From the sequence record PP418985.1: DNA of 64,000 nt; one strand, given 5' to 3'. A program made the position numbers and the translations under genes. Below, in pieces: positions 6,978 to 40,997 of this stretch. The stretch is from Escherichia phage UPWr_E1. A model generated the notes under the pieces. The model did no database searches, was not told the origin of the DNA, and saw only the letters and a program-made list of their open reading frames with translations. Each line of letters starts with the position of its first letter. Position 1 is the first letter of the stretch.

Positions 6978-7451
6978 ATGTTACTGACTGCTAAGAGTGC
7001 TAAAGAGTACAAACAAGAACTATTCGAAAAACAGGGGGGCATTTGCCCCCTTTGTCAATTGCCACTTTTTGAGGATATGAGCAAAAACCATCTTGACCAC
7101 GACCACGATCTAGATGGGAAAGGGCAAGGCCGCGTAAGGGGATTGCTTCATTCGTGTTGCAACCGCCTAGAAGGATCGTTGACCGGAGACTTTAAACGGT
7201 TTGGTGTTGGTGCTTTAGGTGCTGATTTCGTTGTTTGGGCTACAAACTATGTTAATTACATCAAAGGGGACTACACCAACAATCATTTACATCCTCAATA
7301 TGCTGTTGATAAAGTAAAACGATTTTCACGCTTGACACGCGCGGAGATGGTTGCTATTATGGACGCAGAAGGTTTCGATTACTGCGACGCTGATACAAGA
7401 GAAGAGATCACGAAGAAGTATAAGAAACAATTCATACAAAGATTAAGATAG
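6978..7451 (+). CDS. 49: endonuclease VII (Holliday junction resolvase, gp49)
   Basis: MLLT... N-terminus, CxxC zinc site, HLDHDH and GLLHSCCN motifs as in remembered T4 gp49; ATG 6978 after GGAGGGTGAATTT. Confidence 0.85.
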   Translation: MLLTAKSAKEYKQELFEKQGGICPLCQLPLFEDMSKNHLDHDHDLDGKGQGRVRGLLHSCCNRLEGSLTGDFKRFGVGALGADFVVWATNYVNYIKGDYTNNHLHPQYAVDKVKRFSRLTRAEMVAIMDAEGFDYCDADTREEITKKYKKQFIQRLR

Positions 7452-7454
7452 TAG

Positions 7455-7489
7455 TTGACAATAAGAAATGGGAGTAGTAAAATACTCCC
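7455..7489 (+). promoter_or_regulatory. early promoter with -10 inside hairpin loop (type II)
   Basis: TTGACA 7455-7460; GGGAGTA 7470-7476 / TACTCCC 7483-7489; TAAAAT 7478-7483. Confidence 0.7.
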
Positions 7490-7514
7490 ATCTAATCAAG
7501 AAGGAGAATCAACA

Positions 7515-7787
7515 ATGCGTAAGATGTTTAAAGCTGGTGTTGCCTATGTTTTTAAATCTGAGCAAGCACGTAAAGACTTCTTAGAGGATGACTACGAAGG
7601 ATTGAAAGATACCTACGAAGCAATCAAGAATGGATTTACTGTTCTTAAAGTGTCACCCATTGGTTATGTAAGTGAAATCTCGGTTGACGGGAAAACATAT
7701 ACCGCTAAAGACTTTGATCCGCGTTGGGAATTTATGCTGCTTCCGTGTGACCGCATTCTGTTTCGTGCTGTTCAATTAGTGAAATGA
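7515..7787 (+). CDS. repeat-domain family protein (1 module, 91 aa)
   Basis: ATG 7515 after AAGGAGAATCAAC; stem-loop promoter 7455-7489; GFxVLKV...DG.TY module. Confidence 0.6.
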   Translation: MRKMFKAGVAYVFKSEQARKDFLEDDYEGLKDTYEAIKNGFTVLKVSPIGYVSEISVDGKTYTAKDFDPRWEFMLLPCDRILFRAVQLVK

Positions 7788-7801
7788 TAGAGGATTATAT
7801 T

Positions 7802-8362
7802 ATGGTACAGAAAACGTATAAATTGTATCCGGCTAAGTCTTCAAATGATACTGTTTTTGAACGAGGTCGTTATTACACTTTCCGTAATGCTGAGTCCGCA
7901 GAGGAATTTGTTAAACGCTATCCACAACATAACAAGTTCCTGTATGGTGTGCTTCACAAGGGCTTTAAAGTTCTGACGGTTAATGTTATGGGTAAAGTGT
8001 ATTTGGTAGAAACTCATGATTATGAGGGCGCGTCAATCATGATTGATGCAAGCGAGCGCAAATACTTTAAACGCATCACTAAAAAGCAGTTTGAAGAAAT
8101 GAAACCAGTTAAGAAAGAAGACTCTCTGGAAGATCTGATTAACTTGTTTGGTAAAGTTCGCTCTATCTCCTTTGCGATTGAAGATGACATTACCGACAAT
8201 AAAATCTTTATCAAGAACGCGGAAGACCTGAAAGAGTTCCTTATTGAAAATAGATCTCGGCTGGAAACCTTTCTTGAAAGTGAAATTATTCGACATGATA
8301 CCTACGCTAAATTCAGCGCCGAGAAAGTGGAAGAACTGAAAGAGATTAAAAAGTCACTTTAA
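7802..8362 (+). CDS. repeat-domain family protein (module + C-terminal helical LKEFL region)
   Basis: ATG 7802 after AGAGGATTATATT (alternative in-frame ATG 7784); GFKVL...ERKYFKRI motif. Confidence 0.55.
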   Translation: MVQKTYKLYPAKSSNDTVFERGRYYTFRNAESAEEFVKRYPQHNKFLYGVLHKGFKVLTVNVMGKVYLVETHDYEGASIMIDASERKYFKRITKKQFEEMKPVKKEDSLEDLINLFGKVRSISFAIEDDITDNKIFIKNAEDLKEFLIENRSRLETFLESEIIRHDTYAKFSAEKVEELKEIKKSL

Positions 8363-8365
8363 CGC

Positions 8366-8400
8366 TTGACATGATGAAACGGGAGTAGTAAGATACTCCC
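8366..8400 (+). promoter_or_regulatory. early promoter with -10 inside hairpin loop (type II)
   Basis: TTGACA 8366-8371; GGGAGTA 8381-8387 / TACTCCC 8394-8400; TAAGAT 8389-8394. Confidence 0.7.
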
Positions 8401-8425
8401 ATCTAAACAACGAGAGGATTACATT

Positions 8426-9604
8426 ATGGCTAAATTCTTTGAAGGGCATTACTATGCATTCCGTGAAGGCGGTAAAGATGAGTTTCTAGATTTTTCTCGC
8501 TATTCAACTATTCTGACCGATGCTTCGCGCCGTGGTCATATTCGGGTTGCTGGAATCGTAGAAAAGGGCTTTAAAGTATTAGAAAAAGATGACCACGGTC
8601 ATGTTGTTACTATTGAAGCTGGTGATGTGGTTTATTCCGCTAAGGATATTGTGGATTATTGGGCTACTATGATCATGCACAATGAGCGCAAATACTTTAA
8701 ACGTATCTCAAAAGAGACATACGAAGCAATGAATAAGAAAGAGGATGTAATGCCGACCTACTTTGAAAAAGGTAAATGTTATTCATTCACTCCAGAAGGT
8801 TTGCAAGAATTTAAGCGATTCTGGGGAGAGCATGATCCAGAACACAAAGAAGCCATGAAACTTGTTGATTTTGTTGAGTATGGCTTTTTAGTTGAAGAAG
8901 AATTTCACGGATCAGCTACCATGATCACCGCGAAAGATGAAACCGTCAAGGCAGAACGTTTTTGTGACCAATGGAATTGCTTGTTTGATGGTAGCGAATT
9001 TGAATACTTCGCAGAGATCACCCGCGCTGAATATACCCGTATGCAAGAACGTGGTCAGAGATTTAAAGTAGGCGAACGCTACAAGCCAAATCCACATAAT
9101 TTGCCTCATTGGTTTAACACTGAAACCGTATCAAGTCATGTTATTGAAATTGTTCAAACGCTGGAACATGGATTTAAGGTAACTAAAGTAGATTCTTTCG
9201 GAAGTGTTGACGCGGTTGAAGTTGATGGTGTAGAATATACTCCTAAATCTTTTGGGCTTTGCTGGTATCACCTGATCAGCAATGATGAACGTTATTACTT
9301 TGTTGAACTGCCATCTGAACCGGAAGAAGCACTAGAAGATCATGATCATCTGTCTGAACTGGTTAAACTGTTTGGTGATCTGCCGGGTGGTGTAGGGGTG
9401 GCGGTAATGGGTGAAGGTGCTGTTATTCGCAACCTGAAAGACCTTAAAAAGTTCTTGTTCGACATGCTGCCTAAACTCGATGAGAATCTAGATACAGATA
9501 TTCAGAATCGCAAAGAAATTGTTAAAGAGACTGAAAAAGAGATCGAAGAGATTCGAGCAATTCGCCAGAAGGTGAAAGCAGTAAAGAAAAAAGTTAGTGC
9601 TTGA
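8426..9604 (+). CDS. repeat-domain family protein (3 modules + C-terminal helical region, 392 aa)
   Basis: Stem-loop promoter 8366-8400; internal repeats each ending ERKYFKRI / EFEYFAEI / ERYYFVEL. Confidence 0.65.
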   Translation: MAKFFEGHYYAFREGGKDEFLDFSRYSTILTDASRRGHIRVAGIVEKGFKVLEKDDHGHVVTIEAGDVVYSAKDIVDYWATMIMHNERKYFKRISKETYEAMNKKEDVMPTYFEKGKCYSFTPEGLQEFKRFWGEHDPEHKEAMKLVDFVEYGFLVEEEFHGSATMITAKDETVKAERFCDQWNCLFDGSEFEYFAEITRAEYTRMQERGQRFKVGERYKPNPHNLPHWFNTETVSSHVIEIVQTLEHGFKVTKVDSFGSVDAVEVDGVEYTPKSFGLCWYHLISNDERYYFVELPSEPEEALEDHDHLSELVKLFGDLPGGVGVAVMGEGAVIRNLKDLKKFLFDMLPKLDENLDTDIQNRKEIVKETEKEIEEIRAIRQKVKAVKKKVSA

Positions 9605-9634
9605 CATGCAAAGGGAGTATGCTATAATACTCCC
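9601..9634 (+). promoter_or_regulatory. early promoter with -10 inside hairpin loop (type II)
   Basis: TTGACA 9601-9606; GGGAGTAT 9613-9620 / ATACTCCC 9627-9634; TATAAT 9623-9628. Confidence 0.75.
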
Positions 9635-9658
9635 ACTTAACAACGAGAGGATTATATT

Positions 9659-10153
9659 ATGTGGGTACAAGATATTTGGTATACTGTAACTAAAGAAAAC
9701 CTTGACGCATTCAGCGACCAATCTTGCGCTAATAGCTCAATTGCTGGTATCCTTACTGATGTGTTTGGGGGTGTAGATAAAATTCGTTTTAAAGTTGTTG
9801 TTAGTTCGCTGGGTCAGGTGAAAGATCTTTACACCGACGATAAAGACCTTGATCTTAAACTTCGTCTTCGTATTGAAAATGCAAGTCTAGGTTATTGGTT
9901 TGAAGATAACGAATATGAATACTTCACACCAGCAATTAAAGTTTTTGCAACTAAACTGGAAGCTGTACTGAATCTTCGACCAATTAATGTTGACGGGTAC
10001 ATTATTAAAAATCTTCAGGAGTGGGATTCATATCTAGCTCAAGTTATCCGTAACAGCAAGCAGGAAGCCGCTAATAAGAAACGACAAGAGATCAAACAGC
10101 TTAAAGCTGAACTAGAAGCGGCAGAAAAAGAATTAGCAGAACTGGTAAAATAA
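9659..10153 (+). CDS. hypothetical protein with C-terminal coiled coil (164 aa)
   Basis: Stem-loop promoter 9601-9634; terminator 10163-10185 downstream. Confidence 0.6.
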   Translation: MWVQDIWYTVTKENLDAFSDQSCANSSIAGILTDVFGGVDKIRFKVVVSSLGQVKDLYTDDKDLDLKLRLRIENASLGYWFEDNEYEYFTPAIKVFATKLEAVLNLRPINVDGYIIKNLQEWDSYLAQVIRNSKQEAANKKRQEIKQLKAELEAAEKELAELVK

Positions 10154-10197: not shown

Positions 10198-12060
10198 ATG
10201 GAAAAACTAATCAAAGACATTACAGAAATCGCAACGGGTAAAGAAAACGAAGTAAGCAAAGAGAACGCGAACAAAGACGCGCGAACATTCCCGACACGTC
10301 GAGATCTGATTGCTGGTGCTGTGTCTAAACAGATTGCTAAAACCGTGTTACCTGAGCACATCTATAAAGCGCATGTAGACGGTGATATTCATTATCATGA
10401 TATGGATTATGCACCCGCTATGCCGTTTACTAACTGCTGTCTTGTTAATCTCAAAGACATGTTAGAGAATGGTTTTAAATTGGGTAGTGCACAAATCGAA
10501 AGTCCGAAATCAATCGGTGTTGCATGTGCTGTAACCGCTCAAATTATCGCACAGGTGGCAAGTCATCAATATGGCGGAACTACCATAGCAAACATTGATC
10601 AGGTTTTAGCGCCATACGTTGAGAAAACATATCATAAACACCTTGCTGATGCCGAAACCTACGGAATCAAAGCTGATACTCTCTATGCACAAGAGAAGAC
10701 AGAAAAAGAAACGCTAGACGGATATCAGGCGTTGGAATATGAGATCAACACTTTGTTCTCTACCAATGGTCAAACGCCTTTTGTGACTTTAACATTTGGT
10801 ATGGGTACTAGCTGGGAAGAAAAACTGATTCAGAAAGCGATCCTGAACGTTCGAACTAAAGGTTTAGGTAAAGATGGTATCACTCCGGTGTTTCCTAAGC
10901 TGGTGATGTTCTTAGAAGAAGGATTAAACCTTAAACCGGAAGATCCGAACTACGACATTAAGCAACTTGCATTGGAATGTTCTAGTAAGCGTCTTTACCC
11001 TGATTATATCTCTGCGAAGAATAACCGTAGTATCACTGGATCTAGTGTTCCGGTTAGCCCGATGGGTTGTCGTAGCTTCCTGGGTGTGTGGCATAATGAG
11101 AAAGGCGAAGAAGTATTAGACGGACGTAATAACTTAGGTGTTGTGACTCTGAATCTTCCGCGTATTGCTCTTATTGCCGCGCGTCGTGCTGGTAAAGCGT
11201 CTGTAATGCGCAGAATTGAGCTATTCGAACAAGAGCTAGCTAATCGTATGCCTATTTGCTTTGATGCGCTCATGAGTCGCGTAGACGCTTTAAAAGGCGC
11301 TAAAGCCAATGTTGCTCCTGTACTGTATACCGAAGGTGCATTTTTCCGTATTCATCAAAACGATGAAATTTTGGAAGTGCTGAAAGATGGTCGCGCTAGT
11401 ATCTCTCTTGGTTATATTGGTTTACATGAGGTATTGAGCGTCCTGTTTGGTGTCCATCCGTTTGATTCGGAAGATGCGCAGCGATACGGTAAACATATTC
11501 TTAAGATCTTGCGTCATTATACTGAAAAATGGAAGGACGAAACCGGACTTGGGTTTAGTCTTTACGGTACGCCAGCCGAGAGCCTTTGTTATCGATTTAA
11601 TCGACTTGACCGAGAGCAATTTGGTATTATTAAGGGTGCTACCGATAAAGACTGGTACACCAACTCATTCCACCTTGACGTAGACCGGAAGGTTACACCG
11701 TTTGAGAAAATCGACTTTGAGAAAGATTATCACTGGCTGGCGTCCGGTGGCATGATCTCTTATGTTGAGTTCCCAGACATGAAAAACAACCTGAAAGGTC
11801 TTGAAACTGTAGTAGACTATGCAATGGATAAATTGCACTACTTCGGTGTTAATACCCCTTCTGATGTGTGTCATGTATGCGGATCTACTAAGGAAATGAG
11901 AGCGACCGAGTTTGGTTTTGTTTGTCCTGATTGCGGCAATGATAATCTGGAAAAAATGAATGTTATCCGTCGCGTTAGTGGATATCTTGGATCTGTTGAT
12001 CTGCGTCCATTTAACCACGGGAAACACTCTGAGATGGTAAACCGCGTTAAGCATATGTAA
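10198..12060 (+). CDS. nrdD: anaerobic ribonucleoside-triphosphate reductase (class III)
   Basis: 620 aa; C-terminal glycyl-radical region and zinc ribbon (CHVCG...CPDCG); no intron interruption. Confidence 0.92.
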   Translation: MEKLIKDITEIATGKENEVSKENANKDARTFPTRRDLIAGAVSKQIAKTVLPEHIYKAHVDGDIHYHDMDYAPAMPFTNCCLVNLKDMLENGFKLGSAQIESPKSIGVACAVTAQIIAQVASHQYGGTTIANIDQVLAPYVEKTYHKHLADAETYGIKADTLYAQEKTEKETLDGYQALEYEINTLFSTNGQTPFVTLTFGMGTSWEEKLIQKAILNVRTKGLGKDGITPVFPKLVMFLEEGLNLKPEDPNYDIKQLALECSSKRLYPDYISAKNNRSITGSSVPVSPMGCRSFLGVWHNEKGEEVLDGRNNLGVVTLNLPRIALIAARRAGKASVMRRIELFEQELANRMPICFDALMSRVDALKGAKANVAPVLYTEGAFFRIHQNDEILEVLKDGRASISLGYIGLHEVLSVLFGVHPFDSEDAQRYGKHILKILRHYTEKWKDETGLGFSLYGTPAESLCYRFNRLDREQFGIIKGATDKDWYTNSFHLDVDRKVTPFEKIDFEKDYHWLASGGMISYVEFPDMKNNLKGLETVVDYAMDKLHYFGVNTPSDVCHVCGSTKEMRATEFGFVCPDCGNDNLEKMNVIRRVSGYLGSVDLRPFNHGKHSEMVNRVKHM

Positions 12061-12163: not shown

Positions 12164-12700
12164 ATGTTTTGTGTACTGAATAAAGAAATTAAAATTCGCA
12201 AGTTAGAAATTGGTGATGGTGTAGTTGTTAAAATGCACGCTAGCACACTGGCTAGCTTTGGTACAAAAGAAAGTTTCTTTATTATGGGAACTGTTGTTAA
12301 TATCTGCTGGAGTAAAGGCGAAGGCACACAAATCCGTAGTTTTTGTGTCGTTGACGAAGATAATAATCTGTATGTGATTCGCTATCAGAATCAATCTGTA
12401 TTGGTTTATACCGATAATTCACGAGAACTGTATACGCTGGACTTTGCTAAACTATGTGATTGTGATAAAAAGATTCAGGCGTACCACACAGAAGGCTGTT
12501 TTGGTGTTGGCGTCGAAGAGGAAGAGTACATCCCATTGGAAGTCGGGGCAGAAATTAAACATAGTGCCACGGATCGTATTTTTACGGTTGTTGCTGTTAA
12601 TGCAACTCAATTTGTAGCACAAGCACATAATACGGGATTCGTTATCTATGACATTGGTAATGCAAGTTCTCATTTTGAGGGCGTACAATTTCGTTTATAA
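12164..12700 (+). CDS. hypothetical protein (178 aa)
   Basis: Promoter 12104-12131; ATG 12164 after AGAGGATAACATT. Confidence 0.55.
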   Translation: MFCVLNKEIKIRKLEIGDGVVVKMHASTLASFGTKESFFIMGTVVNICWSKGEGTQIRSFCVVDEDNNLYVIRYQNQSVLVYTDNSRELYTLDFAKLCDCDKKIQAYHTEGCFGVGVEEEEYIPLEVGAEIKHSATDRIFTVVAVNATQFVAQAHNTGFVIYDIGNASSHFEGVQFRL

Positions 12701-12712
12701 TGTGAGGTGATT

Positions 12713-13243
12713 ATGTCTAAGTTATTGAATCGTAAGCGTAAAGCACAACGACACAAAGAACGAGCTAAAAAGATTGCTATTGAACTCTGTGAGCGTGAGG
12801 ATAGCTATTTGTCTACTGGTCGTTTGCATACATTCCATGCATTGATTGATGGTAAGCCAGTGTTGCATAATCATGATTGCTTGGCACTGTTTCACGAAAT
12901 CGAACCAATTCATCGTGAATGGGATGACAACAAAGCAAAAGGTCAATATTTCCTTACTTGTTCGTGCGGTCATGCTGGATGTGCTGGATATTGGGAACCT
13001 GTTACTATCCGCGAGAAAAATGATACTATTCAATGGGTTGCCCGTACCCGCGATGGTTATGATAAAGGTGCTGATTGTACTGGTGATAACGTAGTTTACT
13101 TTAATCGTGATTGGTATTATATGGCGCGATGTATGATCCTGTTTTATCTTGACTCGATGCCGTATGAATATTTCAGTTTCCAGAATGGGACCGAACTTAC
13201 TGGTAGAGAATGGTCTGAATACATTCGAAAAAATTTAAAATAA
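12713..13243 (+). CDS. hypothetical protein, basic N-terminus, Cys/His cluster (176 aa)
   Basis: ATG 12713 after GTGAGGTGATT; CSCGHAGCAGYW motif. Confidence 0.55.
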   Translation: MSKLLNRKRKAQRHKERAKKIAIELCEREDSYLSTGRLHTFHALIDGKPVLHNHDCLALFHEIEPIHREWDDNKAKGQYFLTCSCGHAGCAGYWEPVTIREKNDTIQWVARTRDGYDKGADCTGDNVVYFNRDWYYMARCMILFYLDSMPYEYFSFQNGTELTGREWSEYIRKNLK

Positions 13244-13247
13244 ACGC

Positions 13248-13276
13248 TTGACGGGGATCGCGAGATCCCCTATACT
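13248..13276 (+). promoter_or_regulatory. early promoter with spacer stem-loop (type I)
   Basis: TTGACG 13248-13253; GGGGATC-gcga-GATCCCC 13253-13270; TATACT 13271-13276. Confidence 0.75.
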
Positions 13277-13318
13277 ATATTCATCAAGACGAGATACAAC
13301 TTTACAGGAGAATCAAAT

Positions 13319-13471
13319 ATGTGGACTTTACTGATTTGGGAAACTGAAAACGCACAAGTAGAAATCCGTGAATACGAATACCTAAGCCCAGCTTATCTAT
13401 TGGCATCTCGCGGTGGTTACTATAAAGCGCAGATTGTAAACGAGTTCGGGGTAATTGAATATGAGTTCTGA
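13319..13471 (+). CDS. hypothetical small protein (50 aa, not in ORF track)
   Basis: ATG 13319 after AGGAGAATCAAAT downstream of stem-loop promoter 13248-13276; overlaps nrdG start by 11 nt. Confidence 0.4.
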   Translation: MWTLLIWETENAQVEIREYEYLSPAYLLASRGGYYKAQIVNEFGVIEYEF

Positions 13472-13964
13472 TACATACGGCAAACTACGCTATGCCGATA
13501 TTAAAGATTGTGATATGGTTAACGGTGAGGGAGTGAGAGTCTCCCTTTACGTTACCGGATGTTCACACGCATGTGATGGTTGCTTTAATGCTAGCCTACT
13601 CAATCCTAAGAACGGGGAACCATTCACCGATGATACAATGGGATTGGTTTTGGATCTGCTTAGACCGGATTTTATTCAGGGGCTAACCTTCTTAGGTGGT
13701 GATCCGTTGTATAAACGAAATTTAAAGGGTGTACAACGGATCATTGATGAAGTAAAATCATGGATGCCAAATAAAGATATTTGGCTATGGTCCGGTTATA
13801 CCCTTGACCAATTGAATGATGAGCAAAGAAAAATTATAGAATCAGTTGACATGTTCATCGATGGTCGGTATATTAAAGACATGCCAACGAAGAAGCCGTG
13901 GCGGGGGTCTGACAATCAAGTACAATACAAGATTGTTGATAATATCCCAGTGAAAATTATTTGA
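13461..13964 (+). CDS. nrdG: anaerobic ribonucleotide reductase activating protein (radical SAM)
   Basis: Cys cluster CSHACDGC; size about 167 aa; track start 13455 is TTG, ATG 13461 preferred. Confidence 0.85.
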   Translation: MSSDTYGKLRYADIKDCDMVNGEGVRVSLYVTGCSHACDGCFNASLLNPKNGEPFTDDTMGLVLDLLRPDFIQGLTFLGGDPLYKRNLKGVQRIIDEVKSWMPNKDIWLWSGYTLDQLNDEQRKIIESVDMFIDGRYIKDMPTKKPWRGSDNQVQYKIVDNIPVKII

Positions 13965-13974
13965 GGTGATTATT

Positions 13975-14463
13975 ATGAAATGGGAATTGGGTAAGATGTA
14001 CACTCTTGATGGTGACGAGAAGAAAGCAGAATTTACCAAATCGGAACTGTCAATAAACCGTCAAGTTGCCGAGTTTCTTGATGGGCGTCCTTTTACCGTC
14101 GAGGCTATGAGTAATGAGGGTCATGTTCTTGAAATCTCGTTAAGTGATGGTAAATGTATTTCTGTTCTGGACACTCCAATTGGTGCACATGGCGCGTGGT
14201 TTTGGGCTGGTGAACGTCGATTCTTTAAAGAAGTTAAAGAACCGGATTTAACCTTAGAACGTCTGGGTCTGCTTATGGAAGCCTACGACATTCAGTTAAT
14301 CGACAAGACGGGTCTACAACATAGTATTGCCAAAATTACTACCCTAGAAGGTATTAAGAGCGTTCTAAATGGTATGCCTAGCCGGATCGGTGCTATCCGC
14401 GAATACAAGCAAACGCGCGACCGTATGATCCAATTAGAATCACGTATCAAAAATGAGAGATAA
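13975..14463 (+). CDS. repeat-domain family protein (MKWExGK module + helical C-terminus)
   Basis: ATG 13975 after GAGGTGATTATT; MKWELGKMY...DGRPFTV...ERRFFKEV. Confidence 0.6.
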   Translation: MKWELGKMYTLDGDEKKAEFTKSELSINRQVAEFLDGRPFTVEAMSNEGHVLEISLSDGKCISVLDTPIGAHGAWFWAGERRFFKEVKEPDLTLERLGLLMEAYDIQLIDKTGLQHSIAKITTLEGIKSVLNGMPSRIGAIREYKQTRDRMIQLESRIKNER

Positions 14464-14467
14464 TATT

Positions 14468-14953
14468 ATGAAATGGGAAGAAGGTAAGACCTATGTGTTG
14501 GTTGGCGAGTACGAAAAGCGTATTTTGCGTGATTGTTGGCGTTACGAACAAAGACCTAATATTGATGGCAGGTTTACATATCTCGATAAACCATTTATTG
14601 TTGCTACGGTAGACCGTTGGGGTAATGTGCGTTCAATCTATAATCACGAAGGGGATTATATTAGTTCTATCGATATTGGTGATAATATATGGTTTTCCGA
14701 TGGCGACCGAGCGTGCTTCAAAGAAGTTTTATTACCTGGCCATGAACATGATCTAATCGATCTTCTCAAATTGGCGATGGATAATTATAAAATTCGTTTT
14801 GAATGCAAATCACATGCGGCTATCGGTGCTAACGCCTTGCGTCATATCTCCAGTTTTGAAGAGTTGAAAGATTTTCTTGACAAAATGCCGGAAAGAGTTC
14901 AAGCTATACAGGAAGCTGAGAAAGCGTTAAACGAACTTGATAAAATCGGTTAA
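14468..14953 (+). CDS. repeat-domain family protein
   Basis: MKWEEGKTY...DKPFIV...DRACFKEV; ATG 14468. Confidence 0.6.
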   Translation: MKWEEGKTYVLVGEYEKRILRDCWRYEQRPNIDGRFTYLDKPFIVATVDRWGNVRSIYNHEGDYISSIDIGDNIWFSDGDRACFKEVLLPGHEHDLIDLLKLAMDNYKIRFECKSHAAIGANALRHISSFEELKDFLDKMPERVQAIQEAEKALNELDKIG

Positions 14954-14965
14954 GAGGATTATATT

Positions 14966-15799
14966 ATGAAATGGGAAATTGGTAAAACTTACACTTGGAA
15001 AGATGAAAACGCTAAAACTGCGTTTATTGCTAACATAGAAGGTGTTCTTTCTCCGCTTAATAGCGATATTAGCGAAGCTATTGGCGACAAGCCATTTACA
15101 ATCATCGAGATCGAGGGTAATGGTTGGATTGATGTAATAGAGCTAGACGGTGTTTATCATACGGCGAAAACTGCTACAGGAAAAGACATTTGGACATCAA
15201 CATATTTCTTTAGTCCATTCGATAGAAAATTCTTTCGTGAAGTTGAAGAAGTTCCTCCTAAATGGGAAGTTGGTAAAACTTATATTTGGAAGGATGTAAA
15301 CGCAAAAGTGACGTTTTCTCACTGTTCTAATATCAACCGTAAAATTGCTGATTGGATAGGAGATGAGACTTTTACGGTATCTTCCGTTGATTCTGTTGGT
15401 TTCGTTACTATGATCGACGTCAATAATGATAATGCTTGTGGAACATTTAATCCTCATTCAGCTGGTGTTGATGATGATGTTGATGCTGTGTGGTTTGTTG
15501 GGCTTGAACGAAAATATTTTCGTGAAGTTGAAACAGTGAAAGAACCAGAAGAAAAGGTGAACGATGATTCTAAGATCGTTGGACAGTTGAAACGTCTGTT
15601 TAGTAGTCGTTATGGCCTGACAATGGTTAAATTTGGCGAAGCAAATGAAGGTAAAACCTTTGAACGTTTCGATGATTTCATTGCAGCACTTGACAAAATG
15701 GACGAAATCATGCAAGATCGCCAGAAGATTAAAGACCTTCAAGAAGATATTAAACGTCGTGAAGTTGAATTTTTGATTGGTAAAGAGCGAGGTTGGTAA
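14966..15799 (+). CDS. repeat-domain family protein (2 tandem modules + helical C-terminus, 277 aa)
   Basis: MKWEIGKTYTW...DRKFFREV then KWEVGKTYIW...ERKYFREV; ATG after GAGGATTATATT. Confidence 0.65.
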   Translation: MKWEIGKTYTWKDENAKTAFIANIEGVLSPLNSDISEAIGDKPFTIIEIEGNGWIDVIELDGVYHTAKTATGKDIWTSTYFFSPFDRKFFREVEEVPPKWEVGKTYIWKDVNAKVTFSHCSNINRKIADWIGDETFTVSSVDSVGFVTMIDVNNDNACGTFNPHSAGVDDDVDAVWFVGLERKYFREVETVKEPEEKVNDDSKIVGQLKRLFSSRYGLTMVKFGEANEGKTFERFDDFIAALDKMDEIMQDRQKIKDLQEDIKRREVEFLIGKERGW

Positions 15800-15800
15800 T

Positions 15801-16283
15801 ATGTTTGTTGTCGGTATGACCTATCAGTGGAAAGATAATAAAACGCGCGAAGATTTTACAAACTCTAGCGTTGCAAATGATGCAATAGCAGAGTTTATCG
15901 GCGACCGTCCATTTAAAGTTATTGCGTTTGATCACCATGCACCGGATATCGAATATGTTTCTGTGATTGAAATTGATGGCACGATATACACCTGCCGCAA
16001 TGTTGATGATGTACGTGAATACGCGCACAACTGGTTTTTGCAATCAGAAGAACGTTATTTTAAAGTGGTATCGGCAGAACTGACCACCGATGCAATGTTG
16101 GAACATTTTTTCAACAACTACGAAGTTTCTGTGCGTCGATATGGTGAAGAGGAAGTGTTTAAAATTGATGACTATAATCAATTTAAACGAGTATTTGCCA
16201 CTAAGTTACAGCATGATGTTGAACGCGAACAACGCATCAAGGAACTGGAAGAAGAACTGGAACGATTAAAGGCAGAGAAATGA
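15801..16283 (+). CDS. repeat-domain family protein (1 module + coiled-coil C-terminus)
   Basis: MTYQWKD...DRPFKV...ERYFKVV; ELEEELERLKAEK tail; ATG 15801. Confidence 0.6.
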   Translation: MFVVGMTYQWKDNKTREDFTNSSVANDAIAEFIGDRPFKVIAFDHHAPDIEYVSVIEIDGTIYTCRNVDDVREYAHNWFLQSEERYFKVVSAELTTDAMLEHFFNNYEVSVRRYGEEEVFKIDDYNQFKRVFATKLQHDVEREQRIKELEEELERLKAEK

Positions 16284-16549
16284 TCGAGGTCTACGGCATA
16301 CCTAAAGAGGCTTATCATTGTTATGGCTGTATCAATGCAATGAAGCTACTCGACGATCTGGGTATTCCGTATACACTTAAACCAGTATTCAAGCAGGTCG
16401 GGGTTGACATTATTCCCGACCGTGATATGATTGAAGAACTGGCGGGGAGGCTGAACTCAAAGAGCCTCCGATTTGTATACCCCCAGATATTCATTGACAA
16501 CGAGCACATTGGAGGCTATAAAGAACTGAGGGATATTTATGATTATTGA
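16280..16549 (+). CDS. nrdH: glutaredoxin-like protein (NrdH-like redoxin)
   Basis: CYGC redox motif, PQIFIDNEHIGGY C-terminus; near nrdG as in T4. Confidence 0.7.
   Translation: MIEVYGIPKEAYHCYGCINAMKLLDDLGIPYTLKPVFKQVGVDIIPDRDMIEELAGRLNSKSLRFVYPQIFIDNEHIGGYKELRDIYDY
16396..16431 (+). promoter_or_regulatory. promoter-like element embedded in the nrdH-like coding sequence
   Basis: Hairpin GGTCGGG 16396-16402 / CCCGACC 16415-16421 enclosing TTGACA 16404-16409; TGaTATGAT 16423-16431. Confidence 0.4.
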
Positions 16550-16697
16550 GAATTTAGTTTCGGTGTTCATTATTGCTTTATTTGCTATAATGGCTTTACC
16601 GTTGAAGACGTGTAAACACTGTAAAGGAACAGGATTGCGCGGTGATGGGTGTTGTGCTCATTGTCACGGATCTGGTAAAGTAAGTATCATTAAGTAA
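16539..16697 (+). CDS. small membrane-anchored protein with DnaJ-type zinc-finger repeats (52 aa, not in ORF track)
   Basis: ATG 16539; N-terminal hydrophobic helix then CKHCKGTG and CAHCHGSG (CxxCxGxG x2); embedded promoter-like element 16396-16431 upstream. Confidence 0.4.
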   Translation: MIIENLVSVFIIALFAIMALPLKTCKHCKGTGLRGDGCCAHCHGSGKVSIIK

Positions 16698-16718
16698 TTC
16701 TTGAGTGAGGAATATATT

Positions 16719-17006
16719 ATGTTAGTACACAATGCAATCGCACACATGGTTTACTCTCGATTTGGACGCATGGAAGAAATCAATATTACCGATGCAGATT
16801 TAGATCTGATGCAAGTCGAAGGCCAGACATATCTGAAAAATAACGGCGTGAATATCGGTAAAGCGCGTGTGCGTGAATTGTTGGTTGAATATATTCTCTC
16901 TGAATTTGGCATTAGTGCTTTCGGTGTGAAAGAGATTGCACCTAAGCGCGAAATTTCTGATAAAATGATCAAGAAATGCCAGAAAGCACGACGTAAGGGT
17001 TTCTAA
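16719..17006 (+). CDS. hypothetical protein (95 aa)
   Basis: ATG 16719 after GAGGAATATATT. Confidence 0.5.
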   Translation: MLVHNAIAHMVYSRFGRMEEINITDADLDLMQVEGQTYLKNNGVNIGKARVRELLVEYILSEFGISAFGVKEIAPKREISDKMIKKCQKARRKGF

Positions 17007-18475
17007 TGAAGATTGAAACATTAATCGCATTGCCAGCGGCGGGGAAAACTGATGCTATACTTTCCCACGTCCTAGAGACAAAAGAAAAAGCGGTTATTGC
17101 TTCGCCATCTCGTGTTTTAAGTGAACAATCTTACAATAAGTTTAAAAGAATGGGCGGTCGTGCTGTCTTGATTGATAGCACCAGACTAAGAAGCCTTAAG
17201 ACAGTGCAAGCGTCGATAATGCAATCAGTTAAAGATGGTGCTGGTGTGATATTCATTACACATACAGCGTTATCTAATATGGAGCGTTCAAAAATGTTTA
17301 GTGAATATGCTCTTTACATTGATGAAGTTCCTCAACTGGTTGAATTTAATGAGTATCCGTTTAAGTCTAATCTTGAACTTATCACGAAGCATTGCGAACC
17401 AATCGCCGACGAATCGGAATGCCTACAGAACTTAGTTCTAAAAGACTCTGAGAAGGCCGCTATCAAAGAAAAGATAGAAAGTGCAAAGGATGGTACTGAT
17501 ATGATCGATTCTTCTCTTAGAGGGCTTTATGAGGCGTTATTAGAGAAGAAAATCAACGTTATGGTAAAACATAACGAAGGACACCGGAAGAACGGGTCGA
17601 AAATTGTTTTCTTGAACGATAACAAACACGGTACGTGGGGAGACTTTAAAAAGGTTACGATAGCATGTGCAAATCTCTTTGATACATATAGTGGGAAGTA
17701 TCTACGATACTATGCAAATTGCGATTTTGTTCCTAGTGCGCTAGAATCCAGACTATATTTCAAAGAGTATAAAAATACAGATAGAGTTAACATCATCCTT
17801 ATGACGGACTCTGAACGATGGTCGCGTCACCAGTCAGAAACAAACAATACCTTTGAACGTCTTGTTGATATGGTTAAAAATGAATGTGGTGATGACTTCA
17901 TTTATACCGTGAATCGGGACCGTGAAGCGTGCACAAATGGTATTGGTGAGCGGATACCTTACGGATCTTATGGTCTTAACTCTTACATTCATCATAAAAA
18001 TGTTGCTGTGATGTTCAGCTTTAACCCTCAACGATGGGAGATTGATATTTTAAAAGGTCTTGCTAATAGTTGCGATCTCCCGACAAATGAGTTTTTGAAA
18101 GCGCGTCATGTGTCTGATTATCTGGAACCAGCATTTCAATTATGTTTGCGTTGTAACCTGAGAGACAACGAGAGCAAGGAGAATGTTAATCTATATGTTC
18201 CTGATTGGGCGTTGGTAGATTATCTAAAAACGTTTCTACCTAATGCCAATGTAATAACAGACCGAATGATTCCGCTAGAATGTGGTGAGCGTAAAGGGCG
18301 AAAATCATTTAAAAAGATGTTCGACTTTAACGAGCAAGAGAATGCAAGATTTAACGGATTTAAGTACCGCATGAAGAAAAAAGGAAAAACTCTTGATCCG
18401 TCTGACGGTGAATCAGTAGAGATGGTTAGAGTGTGGATAACTAAGCAAAGAAAGTATAATGGTAATGGGGAATAG
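17006..18475 (+). CDS. P-loop NTPase of unknown function (489 aa)
   Basis: Walker A ALPAAGKT near N-terminus, Walker B-like YIDEV; no T4 counterpart recognised. Confidence 0.6.
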   Translation: MKIETLIALPAAGKTDAILSHVLETKEKAVIASPSRVLSEQSYNKFKRMGGRAVLIDSTRLRSLKTVQASIMQSVKDGAGVIFITHTALSNMERSKMFSEYALYIDEVPQLVEFNEYPFKSNLELITKHCEPIADESECLQNLVLKDSEKAAIKEKIESAKDGTDMIDSSLRGLYEALLEKKINVMVKHNEGHRKNGSKIVFLNDNKHGTWGDFKKVTIACANLFDTYSGKYLRYYANCDFVPSALESRLYFKEYKNTDRVNIILMTDSERWSRHQSETNNTFERLVDMVKNECGDDFIYTVNRDREACTNGIGERIPYGSYGLNSYIHHKNVAVMFSFNPQRWEIDILKGLANSCDLPTNEFLKARHVSDYLEPAFQLCLRCNLRDNESKENVNLYVPDWALVDYLKTFLPNANVITDRMIPLECGERKGRKSFKKMFDFNEQENARFNGFKYRMKKKGKTLDPSDGESVEMVRVWITKQRKYNGNGE

Positions 18476-20726: not shown

Positions 20727-20972
20727 ATGATTGCTAATGCACTGAAAGAAATCAACGAAGGTTTATCGAAATTCACTAAGATCCATGTATTTGAGGTTGT
20801 GCGAGATGGTCAGTATATGCTATCATTTCGGTCTAACTATGGTTTATGGACTCATGACGAAATCCCATTTGATCGTGAACATATCACCAAAGAGGGGCTA
20901 ACAAACATCGTATCCCGTAAGGTTGCTGATATTACCCAGAATGTGATTGCCCGTGAATCGTGGAGTATGTAA
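20727..20972 (+). CDS. hypothetical protein (81 aa)
   Basis: Stem-loop promoter 20672-20700; ATG 20727 after GGAGG. Confidence 0.55.
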   Translation: MIANALKEINEGLSKFTKIHVFEVVRDGQYMLSFRSNYGLWTHDEIPFDREHITKEGLTNIVSRKVADITQNVIARESWSM

Positions 20973-31615: not shown

Positions 31616-31933
31616 ATGGATAAGAAACCAACAAGTTTAGAAGAAGCACACGGCTTGATTCAAGAAGCAATGAAGACAGTTATTCAGGAACTGATAATTG
31701 TTGATGAAGAGGGAGAGCATCATATTGTCTATATTCATAATGTTGAATACGATCCAGACACTAAAGGTATTGTGGTCGACTACTCCACGCCGTCAGATCG
31801 TGATGTGGTATATCCTCACGTCATTAAGGCGTTAACAGCGCAGATCAAAGAAGCAGAAGAAAAGTTGAAAAAAGAAACTTTCTGGTATAAACTCAAGACC
31901 TTTGTTATGCGTGTAGTTGGGGGCTATGTATGA
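31616..31933 (+). CDS. hypothetical protein in gene 40 position (105 aa)
   Basis: ATG 31616 after AGAGGATTATATT; terminator 31573-31595 upstream; positional only. Confidence 0.5.
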   Translation: MDKKPTSLEEAHGLIQEAMKTVIQELIIVDEEGEHHIVYIHNVEYDPDTKGIVVDYSTPSDRDVVYPHVIKALTAQIKEAEEKLKKETFWYKLKTFVMRVVGGYV

Positions 31934-33342
31934 TTAAAACTATCTTTTCACAGTTGATTTACAATGGCGCATTCTTTACGAATGTATGGCCTCACCTTAA
32001 AGCGGACTACTTCACCGAAGACGAAGAAAAACTGATTTATAAGCTGATTAAAAAGCACGTAGACGAATATTCCAATATTCCTACGCCAACTGCATTACAG
32101 ATTGCTTTAGACAAGGAGAGAGGCAATCAGACAACATATGAAGGGGCTAAAACTCTTCTTGATTCGCTTGAGAATACACCGGAAGACCTTGATTGGTTAA
32201 TGAAGGAAACCGAAAAATTTATTCGTGACCGTGCCATGTATAATGCAATGTCACGGGCGCTAGAGATTCAAGCGAACGCACAACTACCAAAAGAGAAACA
32301 GAATAAGAAATTGCCTGGCGAGGGAGCTATTCCTGAGATCATGCAGGAAGCACTATCCATTACGTTTGATTCTGATGTAGGTCATGACTGGTTTAATGAC
32401 TTTGAAAAACGATTCTTGCTATATCAGACTAAGGCGAATAAGATCCCGTTTAAGCTGCCGATGTTGAATAAAATCACGAAAGGTGGGGCAGAGAAAAAGA
32501 CATTGAATGTTTTACTCGCTGGTGTAAACGTTGGCAAATCATTGGGTTTGTGTTCTCTTGCTGCGGACTATATGGAATGCGGTTATAATGTTCTGTATAT
32601 CTCAATGGAGATGGCAGAGCACGTAGTAGCAAAACGTATTGACGCAAATTTGCTTGACATTACCTTAGATGAATTGGATAATGGCAATGTTTCCTTTGCT
32701 GAATATTCCGCACGCATGAAACGTGTCAAGAATAAGAAAGCAGGAGAACGTCCAATCGGCAAGCTGATGATCAAGCAGTATCCGACTGGTGGCGCGAACT
32801 CCAACCACTTTGAGGCGTTAATGAATGAATTGCGACTCAAGAAACAGTTTAAACCTGATGTTGTGATTGTTGACTATCTGGGGATTTGCGCATCGTCTCG
32901 TTTGCGTGTATACTCTGAAAATAGTTACACACTAGTTAAAGCTATTGCGGAAGAATTGCGCGGATTTTTTGTTAAGTGGGATGTTGTTGGTTGGACTGCG
33001 GCACAGACTACCCGTGCTGGTTGGGACGCATCGGATCTTAACATGAGTGATACCGCTGAATCAGCAGGTCTTCCGGCTACAGCCGATTTTATGTTGGGTG
33101 TAATTGAAACCGAAGACCTTGCAAAAATGGGTGTTCAATTACTCAAGCAGATTAAATCTCGTTACGGTGATAAGAACTACTATTCACGGTTTAACGTTGG
33201 TGTGAAAAAAGGAAATCAGCGTTGGTATGAAGTTCCAAACCAGATCGCAGATCAGGAGAATGCACAAGTTAAACCACAAAGCGCACAGCAAGCAGAGAAA
33301 CGAGAAAAACTCGACGAGCTAGCAAATAACATGACTTTCTAA
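31930..33342 (+). CDS. 41: replicative DNA helicase gp41 (DnaB-like)
   Basis: 470 aa; Walker A GVNVGKS in C-terminal RecA-like domain; position after uvsX. Confidence 0.9.
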   Translation: MIKTIFSQLIYNGAFFTNVWPHLKADYFTEDEEKLIYKLIKKHVDEYSNIPTPTALQIALDKERGNQTTYEGAKTLLDSLENTPEDLDWLMKETEKFIRDRAMYNAMSRALEIQANAQLPKEKQNKKLPGEGAIPEIMQEALSITFDSDVGHDWFNDFEKRFLLYQTKANKIPFKLPMLNKITKGGAEKKTLNVLLAGVNVGKSLGLCSLAADYMECGYNVLYISMEMAEHVVAKRIDANLLDITLDELDNGNVSFAEYSARMKRVKNKKAGERPIGKLMIKQYPTGGANSNHFEALMNELRLKKQFKPDVVIVDYLGICASSRLRVYSENSYTLVKAIAEELRGFFVKWDVVGWTAAQTTRAGWDASDLNMSDTAESAGLPATADFMLGVIETEDLAKMGVQLLKQIKSRYGDKNYYSRFNVGVKKGNQRWYEVPNQIADQENAQVKPQSAQQAEKREKLDELANNMTF

Positions 33343-33348
33343 TAAAAT

Positions 33349-33364
33349 GCGCCCTACGGGGCGC
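33349..33364 (+). other. intergenic hairpin after gene 41 (no T-run)
   Basis: GCGCCC-tacg-GGGCGC. Confidence 0.45.
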
Positions 33365-33392
33365 TGGTGAATGATTTGATAGGAGATATAAC

Positions 33393-34028
33393 ATGATCGC
33401 TAATGCTTTACCGCCAAAATGGATCGTAAGTCGTTTTTATACTCTAAAGGAAGGTAACGCGCCTGATGGTCGTCCGATCCGAGATCTGTTTCTGGAGATG
33501 ACTACAGCCGAAGCACAGTTTTATAATGATCTGACAGACGATAAGCCATTTCTCGTAAATTCGGTGGACCTTGATGGCAATGTCACATCAATCATCACAC
33601 ATGGTGGGGGAGTGAAAAATATTACTTCTCTGCGTGATCACGGTTGGGAAATTTCTTGTGTATTTCCTGCGGATGTACGCGGATTCTTTGATGAGGTATC
33701 TGATATTAAAGTAAATGCACTGGAACCATATGACGAGATCCCACCACTGAAAGAAGAAAAAGAGTTGACACCGGAAGATGTAGGTAGTACACTACACCCT
33801 GACCTATTTAAGAAGATTAGCGGTTTATGGACTGTTACCCTGTATCCAACCGTATTAGGTTTAGAATTGGGTATGCCAACTTATTCTGATATTGATAATT
33901 GGACTAAGCACATCGATAAAGATGTTGAAAAACAGCGAAACAATGCTAAAATGCAACTTAAAGAGAAACGCAAAGATCTTGAACGACAACTGAAAGAAAC
34001 AAAACATTTGCTTTCTACGTTCGCTTGA
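33393..34028 (+). CDS. repeat-domain family protein (divergent copy, 211 aa)
   Basis: PKWIVSRFYTL...DDKPFLV...DG.V...VRGFFDEV; ATG 33393 after AGGAGATATAAC. Confidence 0.55.
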   Translation: MIANALPPKWIVSRFYTLKEGNAPDGRPIRDLFLEMTTAEAQFYNDLTDDKPFLVNSVDLDGNVTSIITHGGGVKNITSLRDHGWEISCVFPADVRGFFDEVSDIKVNALEPYDEIPPLKEEKELTPEDVGSTLHPDLFKKISGLWTVTLYPTVLGLELGMPTYSDIDNWTKHIDKDVEKQRNNAKMQLKEKRKDLERQLKETKHLLSTFA

Positions 34029-34058: not shown

Positions 34059-34433
34059 ATGAAAAATATGATTACACCGGAAGATGTAGCATTTAAAACC
34101 GCAAATAACGGAGACATTCTTATCTTTATTAACGGTAAACATGCTGGTATGGTTGAACCGGAAGGACGCTGGGGAGTCGCCGAACTTTATGATGTGGCTG
34201 GTGTAGATCCGAAAACTGCAATTGTTTTTCTGGCGGATAAAGATCAAATGCGTCGAAAAATTTCTGCGCTCTATAATGAAGCAGTATATTTCTACGAACC
34301 GTTTCATCGTATTAAAACGATCTCCCGCGTGACTCGAAAAGACGTTAACGCTTGTGTTATCAAGATTGTAGAGAATCAGGATAAACTGACGAAAGACCAG
34401 ATTGTTGACTTACTGAAAGAGATTATTCTATGA
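34059..34433 (+). CDS. hypothetical protein (124 aa)
   Basis: Promoter-like TTGCTT...TATAAT 34007-34036; ATG 34059. Confidence 0.55.
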   Translation: MKNMITPEDVAFKTANNGDILIFINGKHAGMVEPEGRWGVAELYDVAGVDPKTAIVFLADKDQMRRKISALYNEAVYFYEPFHRIKTISRVTRKDVNACVIKIVENQDKLTKDQIVDLLKEIIL

Positions 34434-34966: not shown

Positions 34967-35995
34967 ATGATTTACTACGCAGATTATGAAATAGCGGAAA
35001 AAGCCATATACGGCGAACGAAATTTTAAACGGTTGCATACTAGCTCATTTACGCTGGTCTGTAGTTGTCCGATCTGCGGTGACTCAAAGAAAAATCATAC
35101 TCAAGCGCGATTCCGTATCTATACCTATAAGGATAGTTTGCGTTGTGGCTGTTTCAACTGTAACTACAATCAGCCGTTAGGTGAATTTCTCAAACAGTAT
35201 AAGCCGGACCTATTCAGGGAATGGCTTATGGAGAGACGGAAGGAACAAGGCGACCACAAGAACACCACGTTCAAGCCACTGAAAAAGGTAGAAAAGCCGG
35301 AGATTAAGAAAGTGCAAACATTGCCTTTCTGTGAAAGATTAGATACTCTTCCGGCTAATCATCCTATAATAAAGTATGTCAGTGATCGTTGCATTCCCCA
35401 CGATAAATGGGATCTTCTGTATTTCACGAGAGAATGGCAAAAGGTAGCAAATCACATTAAGGCTGATACTTTTAAGAATCCGCAACCTGAACCGCGTTTA
35501 GTGATTCCTATCTTTAACCGTGAGAACAAGATAGAATCCATTCAGGGGCGAGCATTGAGAAAGGATTACGGAAAGACCAAATATATGACGATTAAAACTC
35601 ACGAGTTAGCGAGTAAGGTCTATGGTCTTGAACGCGCCGATCCGAGAAAGCCAGTGTATTTCTTAGAAGGTCCGATCGATTCATTGTTTATTGATAACGG
35701 GTGTGCAATTACTGGCGGTACTTTGGGATTAGATGAAATCCCTTTCCCAGACCAGCGAGTGTTTGTACTTGATGCGGAACCACGGTCAGCCGATACAATG
35801 CACCGACTGGAAAAGTTTATCAATGCAGGGGAAAAGATTGTTTTGTGGGATCGTTGTCCGTGGCATTCTAAAGACGTTAACGCCATGATTCAGGACGAGG
35901 GCGCTACACGCGACCAGATCATGGAATATATCAAAGAGAACACCGTACAAGGTCTGATGGCTAAAATGCGGTTTATGAAATATTGTAAATTTTAA
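34967..35995 (+). CDS. 61: DNA primase gp61
   Basis: 342 aa (T4 gp61 is about 342 aa); N-terminal zinc ribbon CPICGDSKKN...C..C; position after 41. Confidence 0.85.
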   Translation: MIYYADYEIAEKAIYGERNFKRLHTSSFTLVCSCPICGDSKKNHTQARFRIYTYKDSLRCGCFNCNYNQPLGEFLKQYKPDLFREWLMERRKEQGDHKNTTFKPLKKVEKPEIKKVQTLPFCERLDTLPANHPIIKYVSDRCIPHDKWDLLYFTREWQKVANHIKADTFKNPQPEPRLVIPIFNRENKIESIQGRALRKDYGKTKYMTIKTHELASKVYGLERADPRKPVYFLEGPIDSLFIDNGCAITGGTLGLDEIPFPDQRVFVLDAEPRSADTMHRLEKFINAGEKIVLWDRCPWHSKDVNAMIQDEGATRDQIMEYIKENTVQGLMAKMRFMKYCKF

Positions 35996-40046: not shown

Positions 40047-40715
40047 ATGCTTCCAGTGGATTTAATGATTGACTTTGAAAGTTTAGGTTATCCGCCTGAT
40101 GGGGCGGTAATCAATATGGCGGCAATCGGATTTAAAGAAGACCCACATAATCCACCGACTTTTAAAGAACTGGTTGACAATTCCTTTCTGGTAAAATTTG
40201 ATATTCCTTCCCAGAAAGGTGTAAGGATCTTTGATCATGGTGTGGTTGAATGGTGGAAGAATACCGCCTCAGAAGGCATGAGAAAGCAATTAATCACAAA
40301 TGGTACGGAAGTATCAACTAAAGAAGGTTTAGCGCGTTTTAACGCATTCTGTGAATCTGTAGGAGTAGATCCGGTTAAATCCGTAATGTGGTCACGCGGT
40401 AATGCGTTTGATATTCCGTTACTAGTTGATATGATTCGACGTGCTCATAATACCCGTGAGACGTTCAGCCTTGAACCTGTGCGATTCTGGAACATCCGAG
40501 ATGTTCGCACCGCCATTGAGCGTACATTGATGCATCGTGGTATGTGTGAATGCCCGTTACCAATGGGTACGCTAGACGGATTTATCGCGCATGATGCAAT
40601 TCATGATTGCGCTCGCGATATTCTTATGCTAATCTATGCACAACGTTATGCTATGGGTCTGGAAGACCTACCAGAAAATCCAGATCCAAATTCAGTTAAG
40701 AAACAAAGGGGATAA
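40047..40715 (+). CDS. dexA: exonuclease A (DexA, 3'-5' DNA exonuclease)
   Basis: Colinear with remembered T4 DexA (IDFE..G, WWKN, GTLDGFIAHDAIHDCARDILM, YAMGLED); ATG 40047 after GGAGGATATTTAAA. Confidence 0.9.
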   Translation: MLPVDLMIDFESLGYPPDGAVINMAAIGFKEDPHNPPTFKELVDNSFLVKFDIPSQKGVRIFDHGVVEWWKNTASEGMRKQLITNGTEVSTKEGLARFNAFCESVGVDPVKSVMWSRGNAFDIPLLVDMIRRAHNTRETFSLEPVRFWNIRDVRTAIERTLMHRGMCECPLPMGTLDGFIAHDAIHDCARDILMLIYAQRYAMGLEDLPENPDPNSVKKQRG

Positions 40716-40716
40716 T

Positions 40717-40890
40717 ATGCCATTATATGATTATTCTTGTGAAGAACACGGTCAATTTCAGAAAATCCGCAAAATTTCCGAGCGTGAAAATGCAGAATGC
40801 CCTGAATGCGGTAAAGAATGCAAACAGGGATTGACTGCCCCGCGCGGGATTAATGGCGGGTATTACGATAAAAATGTGCGCGTGTCATGA
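40717..40890 (+). CDS. FmdB-type zinc-ribbon protein (57 aa)
   Basis: MPLYDYSCEEHG...CPECG: two CxxC pairs typical of FmdB zinc ribbon; ATG 40717. Confidence 0.5.
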   Translation: MPLYDYSCEEHGQFQKIRKISERENAECPECGKECKQGLTAPRGINGGYYDKNVRVS

Positions 40891-40997
40891 GTCATATACT
40901 TGACAATCACTCAATTTTTAATATGATTGTTGCAGCCGTCTTTGTGGCGGTTGCAGTAAGTTATGGTTATGTTATGAAGAGGTTTAATAATGAGTGA
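40887..40997 (+). CDS. hypothetical transmembrane peptide (36 aa)
   Basis: ATG 40887 overlapping upstream stop; single hydrophobic helix; stop overlaps gene 39 start. Confidence 0.25.
   Translation: MSHILDNHSIFNMIVAAVFVAVAVSYGYVMKRFNNE

Follow-up and report, generated by a model that had tools for sequence, protein, structure and literature searches.

The window analysed here, a stretch of 64,000 nt, comes from a Krischvirus, an RB49-like T4-type phage of the family Straboviridae. The ORF at 33393..34028 (+ strand) starts with ATG and, according to the ORF list, encodes 211 amino acids plus a stop. Its RB49 counterpart is dc2, whose product (Dc2, AAL87840) is 99.1% identical at the protein level and annotated as "hypothetical protein"; phrog_16187 from PHROGs matches Dc2 over its full length (E = 4.5e-147). 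Genes of this segment are arranged in the order uvsX, 40, 41, dc2, dc1, 61.1, two small ORFs, 61 and 56, and JK32, RB49 and relatives match the 41-61 region with 96-97% identity. The position between genes 41 and 61 noted in an earlier, sequence-only reading of this DNA holds: gene 41 (31930..33342, +; RB49 annotation), coding for the replicative helicase and representing the invariant upstream neighbour of dc2-type genes, precedes dc2, while dc1 (34059-34433, phrog_16174) and gene 61 (34967-35995) follow downstream. Because codon differences between dc2 and its RB49 counterpart include 9 synonymous and 2 non-synonymous changes, and because Dc2 is 91-99% identical in 58 of 58 Krischvirus records, dc2 is judged to be a real gene under purifying selection. 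A literature search on RB49 dc2 and dc1 returned dendritic-cell papers only.

Two T4 genes from the same 41-61 interval were considered as equivalents and rejected. A phmmer search with gp61.2 (208 aa) against the six-frame translation of the window did not retrieve dc2, and gp61.4 has no similarity to Dc2.

The site occupied by dc2 is highly regular. In each of the 58 Krischvirus records the gene lies immediately 3' of gene 41. The Dc2 subfamily comprises six further clusters at 50% identity, and contigs were recovered for five of them (P0056, P0028, P0035, P0081 and P0079). The dc2-type gene was located directly 3' of gene 41 in all five metagenomic lineages (L004-L010), and wherever a contig extends far enough it also precedes gene 61; DnaB_C was called in the gene upstream of the dc2-type gene in L006, L008 and L010. 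A tblastn search with Dc2 and P0028 against isolated phages gave Krischvirus only, and the wider synteny comes from the metagenomic contigs.

The spacer between gene 41 and dc2 carries a GC-rich hairpin, GCGCCC-UACG-GGGCGC, with a UNCG-type tetraloop (33349..33364, +), 7 nt after the gene 41 stop. No T-run follows it on the + strand, and the hairpin therefore does not qualify as a canonical intrinsic terminator of the gene 41 transcript. The centroid structure of the spacer has -14.2 kcal/mol, mostly contributed by the hairpin, and this folding energy is not exceptional with respect to shuffled sequences (z = -1.45), so the case for the hairpin is based on conservation and not on energy. The hairpin is identical in L006 and nearly so in L005, both arms are changed in L010 (GCCCC-UUCG-GGGGC), and the loop reads UGCG in phage Ec_Makalu_002; L004 and L008 are without it, and the spacer is there about 10 nt long. 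Its probable role is that of an attenuator, or of an element that defines the 3' end of the mRNA or affects its stability. A Shine-Dalgarno motif GGAG, read from the sequence, is located at 33382..33385 (+), 7 nt before the dc2 ATG. The candidate early promoter closest to dc2 on its upstream side lies inside gene 41 (32654..32682, +), in the form of a near-consensus sigma70-type sequence TTGACA-17-GATAAT with matches in 11 of 12 consensus positions, and the equivalent site is annotated in RB49 as 'hypothetical early promoter'. Early transcripts started there could comprise the 3' part of gene 41 together with dc2, dc1 and 61. Expression of dc2 is most likely with or just behind gene 41, and transcription would either continue through the hairpin or start at the sigma70-like promoter within gene 41.

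Dc2 was claimed in the sequence-only reading to share PKWIVSRFYTL, DDKPFLV and VRGFFDEV with the module of a gene cluster about 17 kb away. All three motifs are present, at aa 8-18, 49-55 and 95-102, respectively. The cluster in question (cluster 2; 13975..16283, +) is composed of four tandem family genes between nrdG and nrdH (13975-14463, 14468-14953, 14966-15799 with two N-modules, and 15801-16283), which correspond to RB49 ORF048c-051c. Four further family genes (cluster 1; about 7455-10153, +) are placed between the genes for endonuclease VII (6978-7451) and nrdD (10198-12060), at 7515-7787, 7784-8362, 8426-9604 and 9659-10153; the product of the third, 392 aa long, contains three N-modules in a row. 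According to profile searches, the family content of the 64-kb window amounts to nine ORFs with 12 N-modules, Dc2 being the most divergent member. The window paralogs (phrog_5347 group) have the same domain order as Dc2 and are placed by profiles in the same family, at identities of 15-27%. They differ from it in forming tandem arrays, with two or three N-modules in some genes, whereas Dc2 is single-copy, with one module. In addition, cluster 2 is strain-variable and Dc2 positionally invariant.

Smith-Waterman comparisons of Dc2 with cluster 2 proteins gave z = 7.2 (ORF 13966), 9.3 (ORF 14453) and 9.8 (ORF 14966), and none of 500 shuffles reached the observed score in any of the three; the fourth comparison, with ORF 15777, was not significant (z = 1.3, 500 shuffles). 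A family HMM constructed from 109 N-modules, from which every Dc2-type sequence had been excluded, scores Dc2 with 43.9 bits (E = 1e-15), while the best of 2000 shuffles attains 7.3 bits. Reciprocally, a profile of Dc2-type proteins alone finds the cluster ORFs with E = 4e-9, 1e-8, 2e-5 and 6e-3. The family of the cluster, phrog_5347, cross-matches Dc2 (E = 0.0022). Similarity extends beyond the three motifs throughout the full architecture, including N-module, linker, small middle region and charged C-terminal helix. In favour of a resemblance by chance or composition, with the ORF unrelated to the cluster, one can cite the single non-significant comparison among four and the Pfam search, in which no model matches the ORF and Dc2 together with the cluster proteins yields sub-threshold coiled-coil noise only. 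Such an explanation is nevertheless close to negligible in probability when set against the shuffle controls, the agreement of independent reciprocal profiles, the PHROG cross-match, the match in full-length architecture and the structural matches in the same phage family described below. The proposal that Dc2 is a dispersed, divergent copy of the cluster family is confirmed at the level of sequence comparison.

The same modules lead to T4 proteins. The N-module HMM derived from the window finds T4 GoF over the full module (E = 3.6e-14) and MotB.1 weakly, and hhalign of window modules against GoF gives a probability of 97% and E = 5e-11. The profile of Dc2-type proteins alone also reaches GoF, with E = 3e-5 across 86 columns and with the GFFDEV motif common to both, and produces weak matches to MotB.1 (E = 2.4e-4 over 28 columns) and Frd.2 (E = 0.008). 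In pairwise BLAST, Dc2 and GoF are paired with E = 0.007 only, and are about 27% identical over 77 residues. [quoted passage not shown] 2025, PMC12152347). Proteins of this family are non-essential in the laboratory, where deletions show no phenotype, and GoF and MotB.1 run as monomer and dimer; RB49, Dc2 and the paralog arrays are not mentioned in that work (PMC12152347).

An exhaustive HMMER search through 1.8 billion representatives disclosed only 115 clusters (50% identity) at E <= 1e-3. Nearly all of these relatives are 80-280 aa long and contain the N-terminal module in one to three copies. When Dc2 is added to give 116 sequences, 96 match phrog_622, 52 match the GoF family phrog_13003, and four match Pfam FRD2. 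A few long non-phage matches (524-1896 aa, with Ank, RCC1 and Big domains) turned out to be partial, restricted to repeats or short stretches, and were judged spurious. Short relatives of Dc2 match phage PHROGs, and this search revealed no relatives of the family outside phages.

The founding member, T4 GoF (ComC-alpha, 141 aa), has a barrel of ~ 90 residues that aligns with Dc2 over its whole length, and the GFFDEV motif of the barrel, common to both proteins, contains GoF residue G84. Both carry a small C-terminal part behind an acidic, flexible linker, and for both the nearest solved structure is FeoA and the origin is a T4-type phage. Dc2 differs in being 70 residues longer and in having a long C-terminal helix. 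The same barrel is predicted for T4 MotB.1 and Frd.2 (PF03197, FRD2), although their matches are much weaker than that of GoF, and the Pfam FRD2 model does not match Dc2. Considering sequence, predicted fold, architecture and host range together, Dc2 is assigned to the GoF/MotB.1/Frd.2 family as a very divergent member. Genomic locations of the two genes differ as well: goF is found in T4 between gene 39 and motB, and the place behind gene 41 is taken by dmd in T4 and by dc2 in Krischvirus. In the window, the gap between the dexA-like gene and gene 39 is 274 nt long (40715-40990) and holds no goF; T4 goF, cef, motB, motB.1 and motB.2, situated between dexA and gene 39, have no counterpart at that site. 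The gene for the large subunit of topoisomerase II in the window codes for 607 aa and is apparently unsplit.

The N-terminal GoF-type domain of Dc2 (aa 8-105; 33414..33707, +) is predicted to form a five-stranded SH3-like / 'LSm-like' beta-barrel. Two AlphaFold2 models were built, one using an alignment with paralogs and the other using Dc2-type proteins only, and both show the same five strands in residues 11-105, with pLDDT of about 75-88. Landmarks of the domain are W10, Y16, F33, DKPF(52-53)xV55, G62, V64, F91 and RGFFDEV (96-102). It is followed by an acidic, proline-containing linker (aa 106-134; 33708..33794, +), predicted as disordered with pLDDT < 50 in both models, and its length and sequence differ among Dc2-type proteins. 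The small middle/C-terminal region (aa 135-171; 33795..33905, +) has pLDDT of 45-72 and a poorly predicted fold, and in the model based on Dc2-type proteins only it is still not confidently folded. This region aligns with the matching region of cluster members, and residues G144, W146, V148, L150, P152 and G156 occupy invariant or nearly invariant alignment columns. The C-terminal end is predicted as a long charged helix (aa 172-210; 33906..34022, +), with a DSSP helix at 167/172-210 and pLDDT of 74-90; cluster paralogs carry an equivalent charged C-terminal tail.

The best PDB neighbour of the predicted N-domain is FeoA, as reported for GoF. In a Foldseek search against viral models, Dc2 of phage ECD7 was found first, followed almost exclusively by uncharacterised proteins of T4-type phages (Proteus, Aeromonas, Edwardsiella, Acinetobacter and Yersinia), and annotated GoF was among the matches. 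The small five-stranded, bent antiparallel beta-barrel topology of Dc2 is shared with FeoA / DtxR-type C-terminal SH3-like domains and with Tudor, KOW and Hfq/Sm barrels. Classification as a true Hfq/Sm (LSm) protein, for which Sm1/Sm2 motifs and a ring-forming barrel recognizable as a close structural neighbour were required, was rejected.

The dispersed location had suggested that the module moves as a cassette, in which case dc2 would be a recent arrival, brought from the 13975-16283 cluster by transposition or recombination. The family is indeed dispersed, with two tandem arrays and dc2 in the window and three separate loci in T4, and the nrdG-nrdH interval that holds cluster 2 (12700-17100) is patchy among isolates. 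A shuffling mechanism is documented in RB49-type phages in the form of PeSLs, mobile promoter/stem-loop cassettes (Arbiol et al. 2010, PMC2839356). The PeSL + ORFan cassettes of RB49 and phi1 (PMC2839356) come from the same phage group, and dc2 likewise has a GC-rich stem-loop upstream; it differs from them, however, in having no sigma70-consensus promoter at that stem-loop, no stem-loop downstream and no presence/absence variation. No flanking direct or inverted repeats were found around dc2. Searching the window for its other copies by blastn revealed no DNA similarity, the best matches (E >= 0.02) being elsewhere, and identity to proteins of the cluster is only 19-27%. Furthermore, the gene occupies the same place behind gene 41 in 58 isolates and in lineages where identity to the window proteins is 27-45% for Dc2, compared with 67-88% for gp41, 62-81% for gp61 and 74-84% for UvsX. 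The synteny comparison is the decisive argument against movement, and we consider a mobile cassette highly improbable. Because the same site has been kept while Dc2 diverged so much more than gp41, dc2 is, as judged by these comparisons, a fast-evolving gene with old vertical inheritance at one site since before the lineages split. The nrdG-nrdH interval is covered in the 58 Krischvirus records to 65-100%, in 1-5 pieces and with 92-95% identity; the 41-61 interval has full coverage in the same records. The cluster 2 array looks like a recombination-prone hyperplastic region, and present-day plasticity in the family, if there is any, resides in the tandem arrays rather than in dc2.

A second possible sign of exchange was seen in the first six residues, MIANAL, which Dc2 indeed has in common with the unrelated ORF 20727-20972, and for which recombination within the translation initiation region or coincidence had been offered. 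With the 96 genes of the window, the expected number of pairs sharing six initial residues is about 0.018 (column shuffling gives P of about 0.011, for a pair picked post hoc), and if one base is allowed to slip, TTGAT(A/T)GGAG precedes both starts. These two observations would suit recombination. Against it stand synonymous differences in four of the six codons, with 14 of 18 nucleotides identical, and unrelated flanks: in register, 8 of 40 nt upstream and 9 of the next 42 nt are identical. Starts also vary independently between strains. In phage Ec_Makalu_002, Dc2 reads MIANAL and the ortholog of ORF 20727 reads MITDAL, other Dc2 orthologs begin with MIANTL or MFIN, and distant ones start quite differently. 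A recent recombination event is refuted by these differences, and an ancient one would be indistinguishable from chance; overall, a recombination origin of MIANAL is very improbable. We therefore adopt the other option and treat the shared start as chance, though unusual.

Taken as a whole, we regard it as probable that dc2 is a paralog of the GoF family produced by old duplication and inherited vertically at a fixed site, with a putative binding role. The gene would have arisen by duplication within the family and would then have been passed on directly 3' of gene 41, diverging much faster than its neighbours; on present comparisons it is not currently a mobile cassette. Homology, fold class, fixed position and purifying selection are shown by the analysis, whereas the functional part of this proposal is tentative. 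No catalytic signature could be recognized in Dc2, and by analogy with T4 GoF it may be a small non-enzymatic binding protein acting post-transcriptionally, whose barrel would make contact either with RNA or with a host protein that handles RNA. The C-terminal helix may mediate self-association, possibly as a dimerisation helix. As for the analogy itself, a measured effect is reported for GoF(D25Y) only, namely post-transcriptional stabilisation of RNA with the gene 41 leader (PMC12152347). Position D25 of GoF aligns with a conserved Met in Dc2-type proteins (Met36 in Dc2), so the gain-of-function site is no guide for Dc2.

It is also conceivable, with doubt of similar extent, that Dc2 belongs to the GoF family but serves in protein binding during host takeover or counter-defence, the barrel being a fast-evolving recognition module. 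Most barrels of the SH3-like, Tudor and FeoA types serve in protein interaction, and the divergence of Dc2 far outpaces that of the proteins encoded next to it. Tandem arrays of family members, variable between strains, occupy hyperplastic regions, a pattern typical of genes engaged in an arms race. In the family's only functional assay, moreover, little effect on RNA was seen for wild-type GoF and MotB.1 (PMC12152347). Two points count against a protein-binding role: RNA stabilisation by GoF(D25Y) is the only functional datum for the family (PMC12152347), and strict adjacency to gene 41 is unexpected for a defence-related accessory gene. A more specific proposal, which we put forward as improbable, is that within the GoF family the Dc2-type proteins form the native arm linked to gene 41, and that they are retained directly behind this gene because they act in cis-proximity on the 41-61 replication-gene transcript. 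Through the conserved UNCG hairpin between 41 and dc2, for example, they would set stability or read-through of this transcript. If such an arm existed, the long-puzzling link between GoF(D25Y) and gene 41 mRNA would reflect ancestral function instead of a gain-of-function accident.

Results of this analysis assign RB49 Dc2, a "hypothetical protein" for 20 years, to a family and provide it with a predicted fold. The 2025 description of the GoF family was based on three T4 genes; in Krischvirus the family has grown to at least nine genes with 12 modules within 64 kb. What is new is modest: Dc2 now has a family, the size of this family in Krischvirus has become visible, and one of its branches is strictly tied to gene 41. 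Adjacency to gene 41 offers a testable entry into wild-type function, because the effect of GoF(D25Y) on gene 41 mRNA is the only functional clue for the family. In other respects dc2 is an ordinary old paralog and no mobile element.

Some additional observations concern the surroundings of dc2. The neighbouring gene dc1 is likewise conserved behind dc2-type genes in L004, L006 and L008, with identity of 36-76%; in L006 and L008, one or two unrelated ORFs separate it from the dc2-type gene. In the window, the 16-nt sequence ACACCGGAAGATGTAG, which encodes TPEDV, occurs as an exact match between the dc2 linker (33768-33783) and the first codons of dc1 (34074-34089), where the chance expectation for such a match is about 3e-4 in 1.7 kb. 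The idea drawn from it, that Dc1 is homologous to the C-terminal half of Dc2, was rejected by alignment scores (z = 0.4-0.6). Metagenomic relatives contain extra genes between gene 56 and modB/dda (L008/L009, 9255-11190; L010, 8465-8746) that are absent from the window. Among them are a Mom-like gene, an N6/N4 methyltransferase gene and a gene with a weak match to Tad2-like (anti-defence) proteins.
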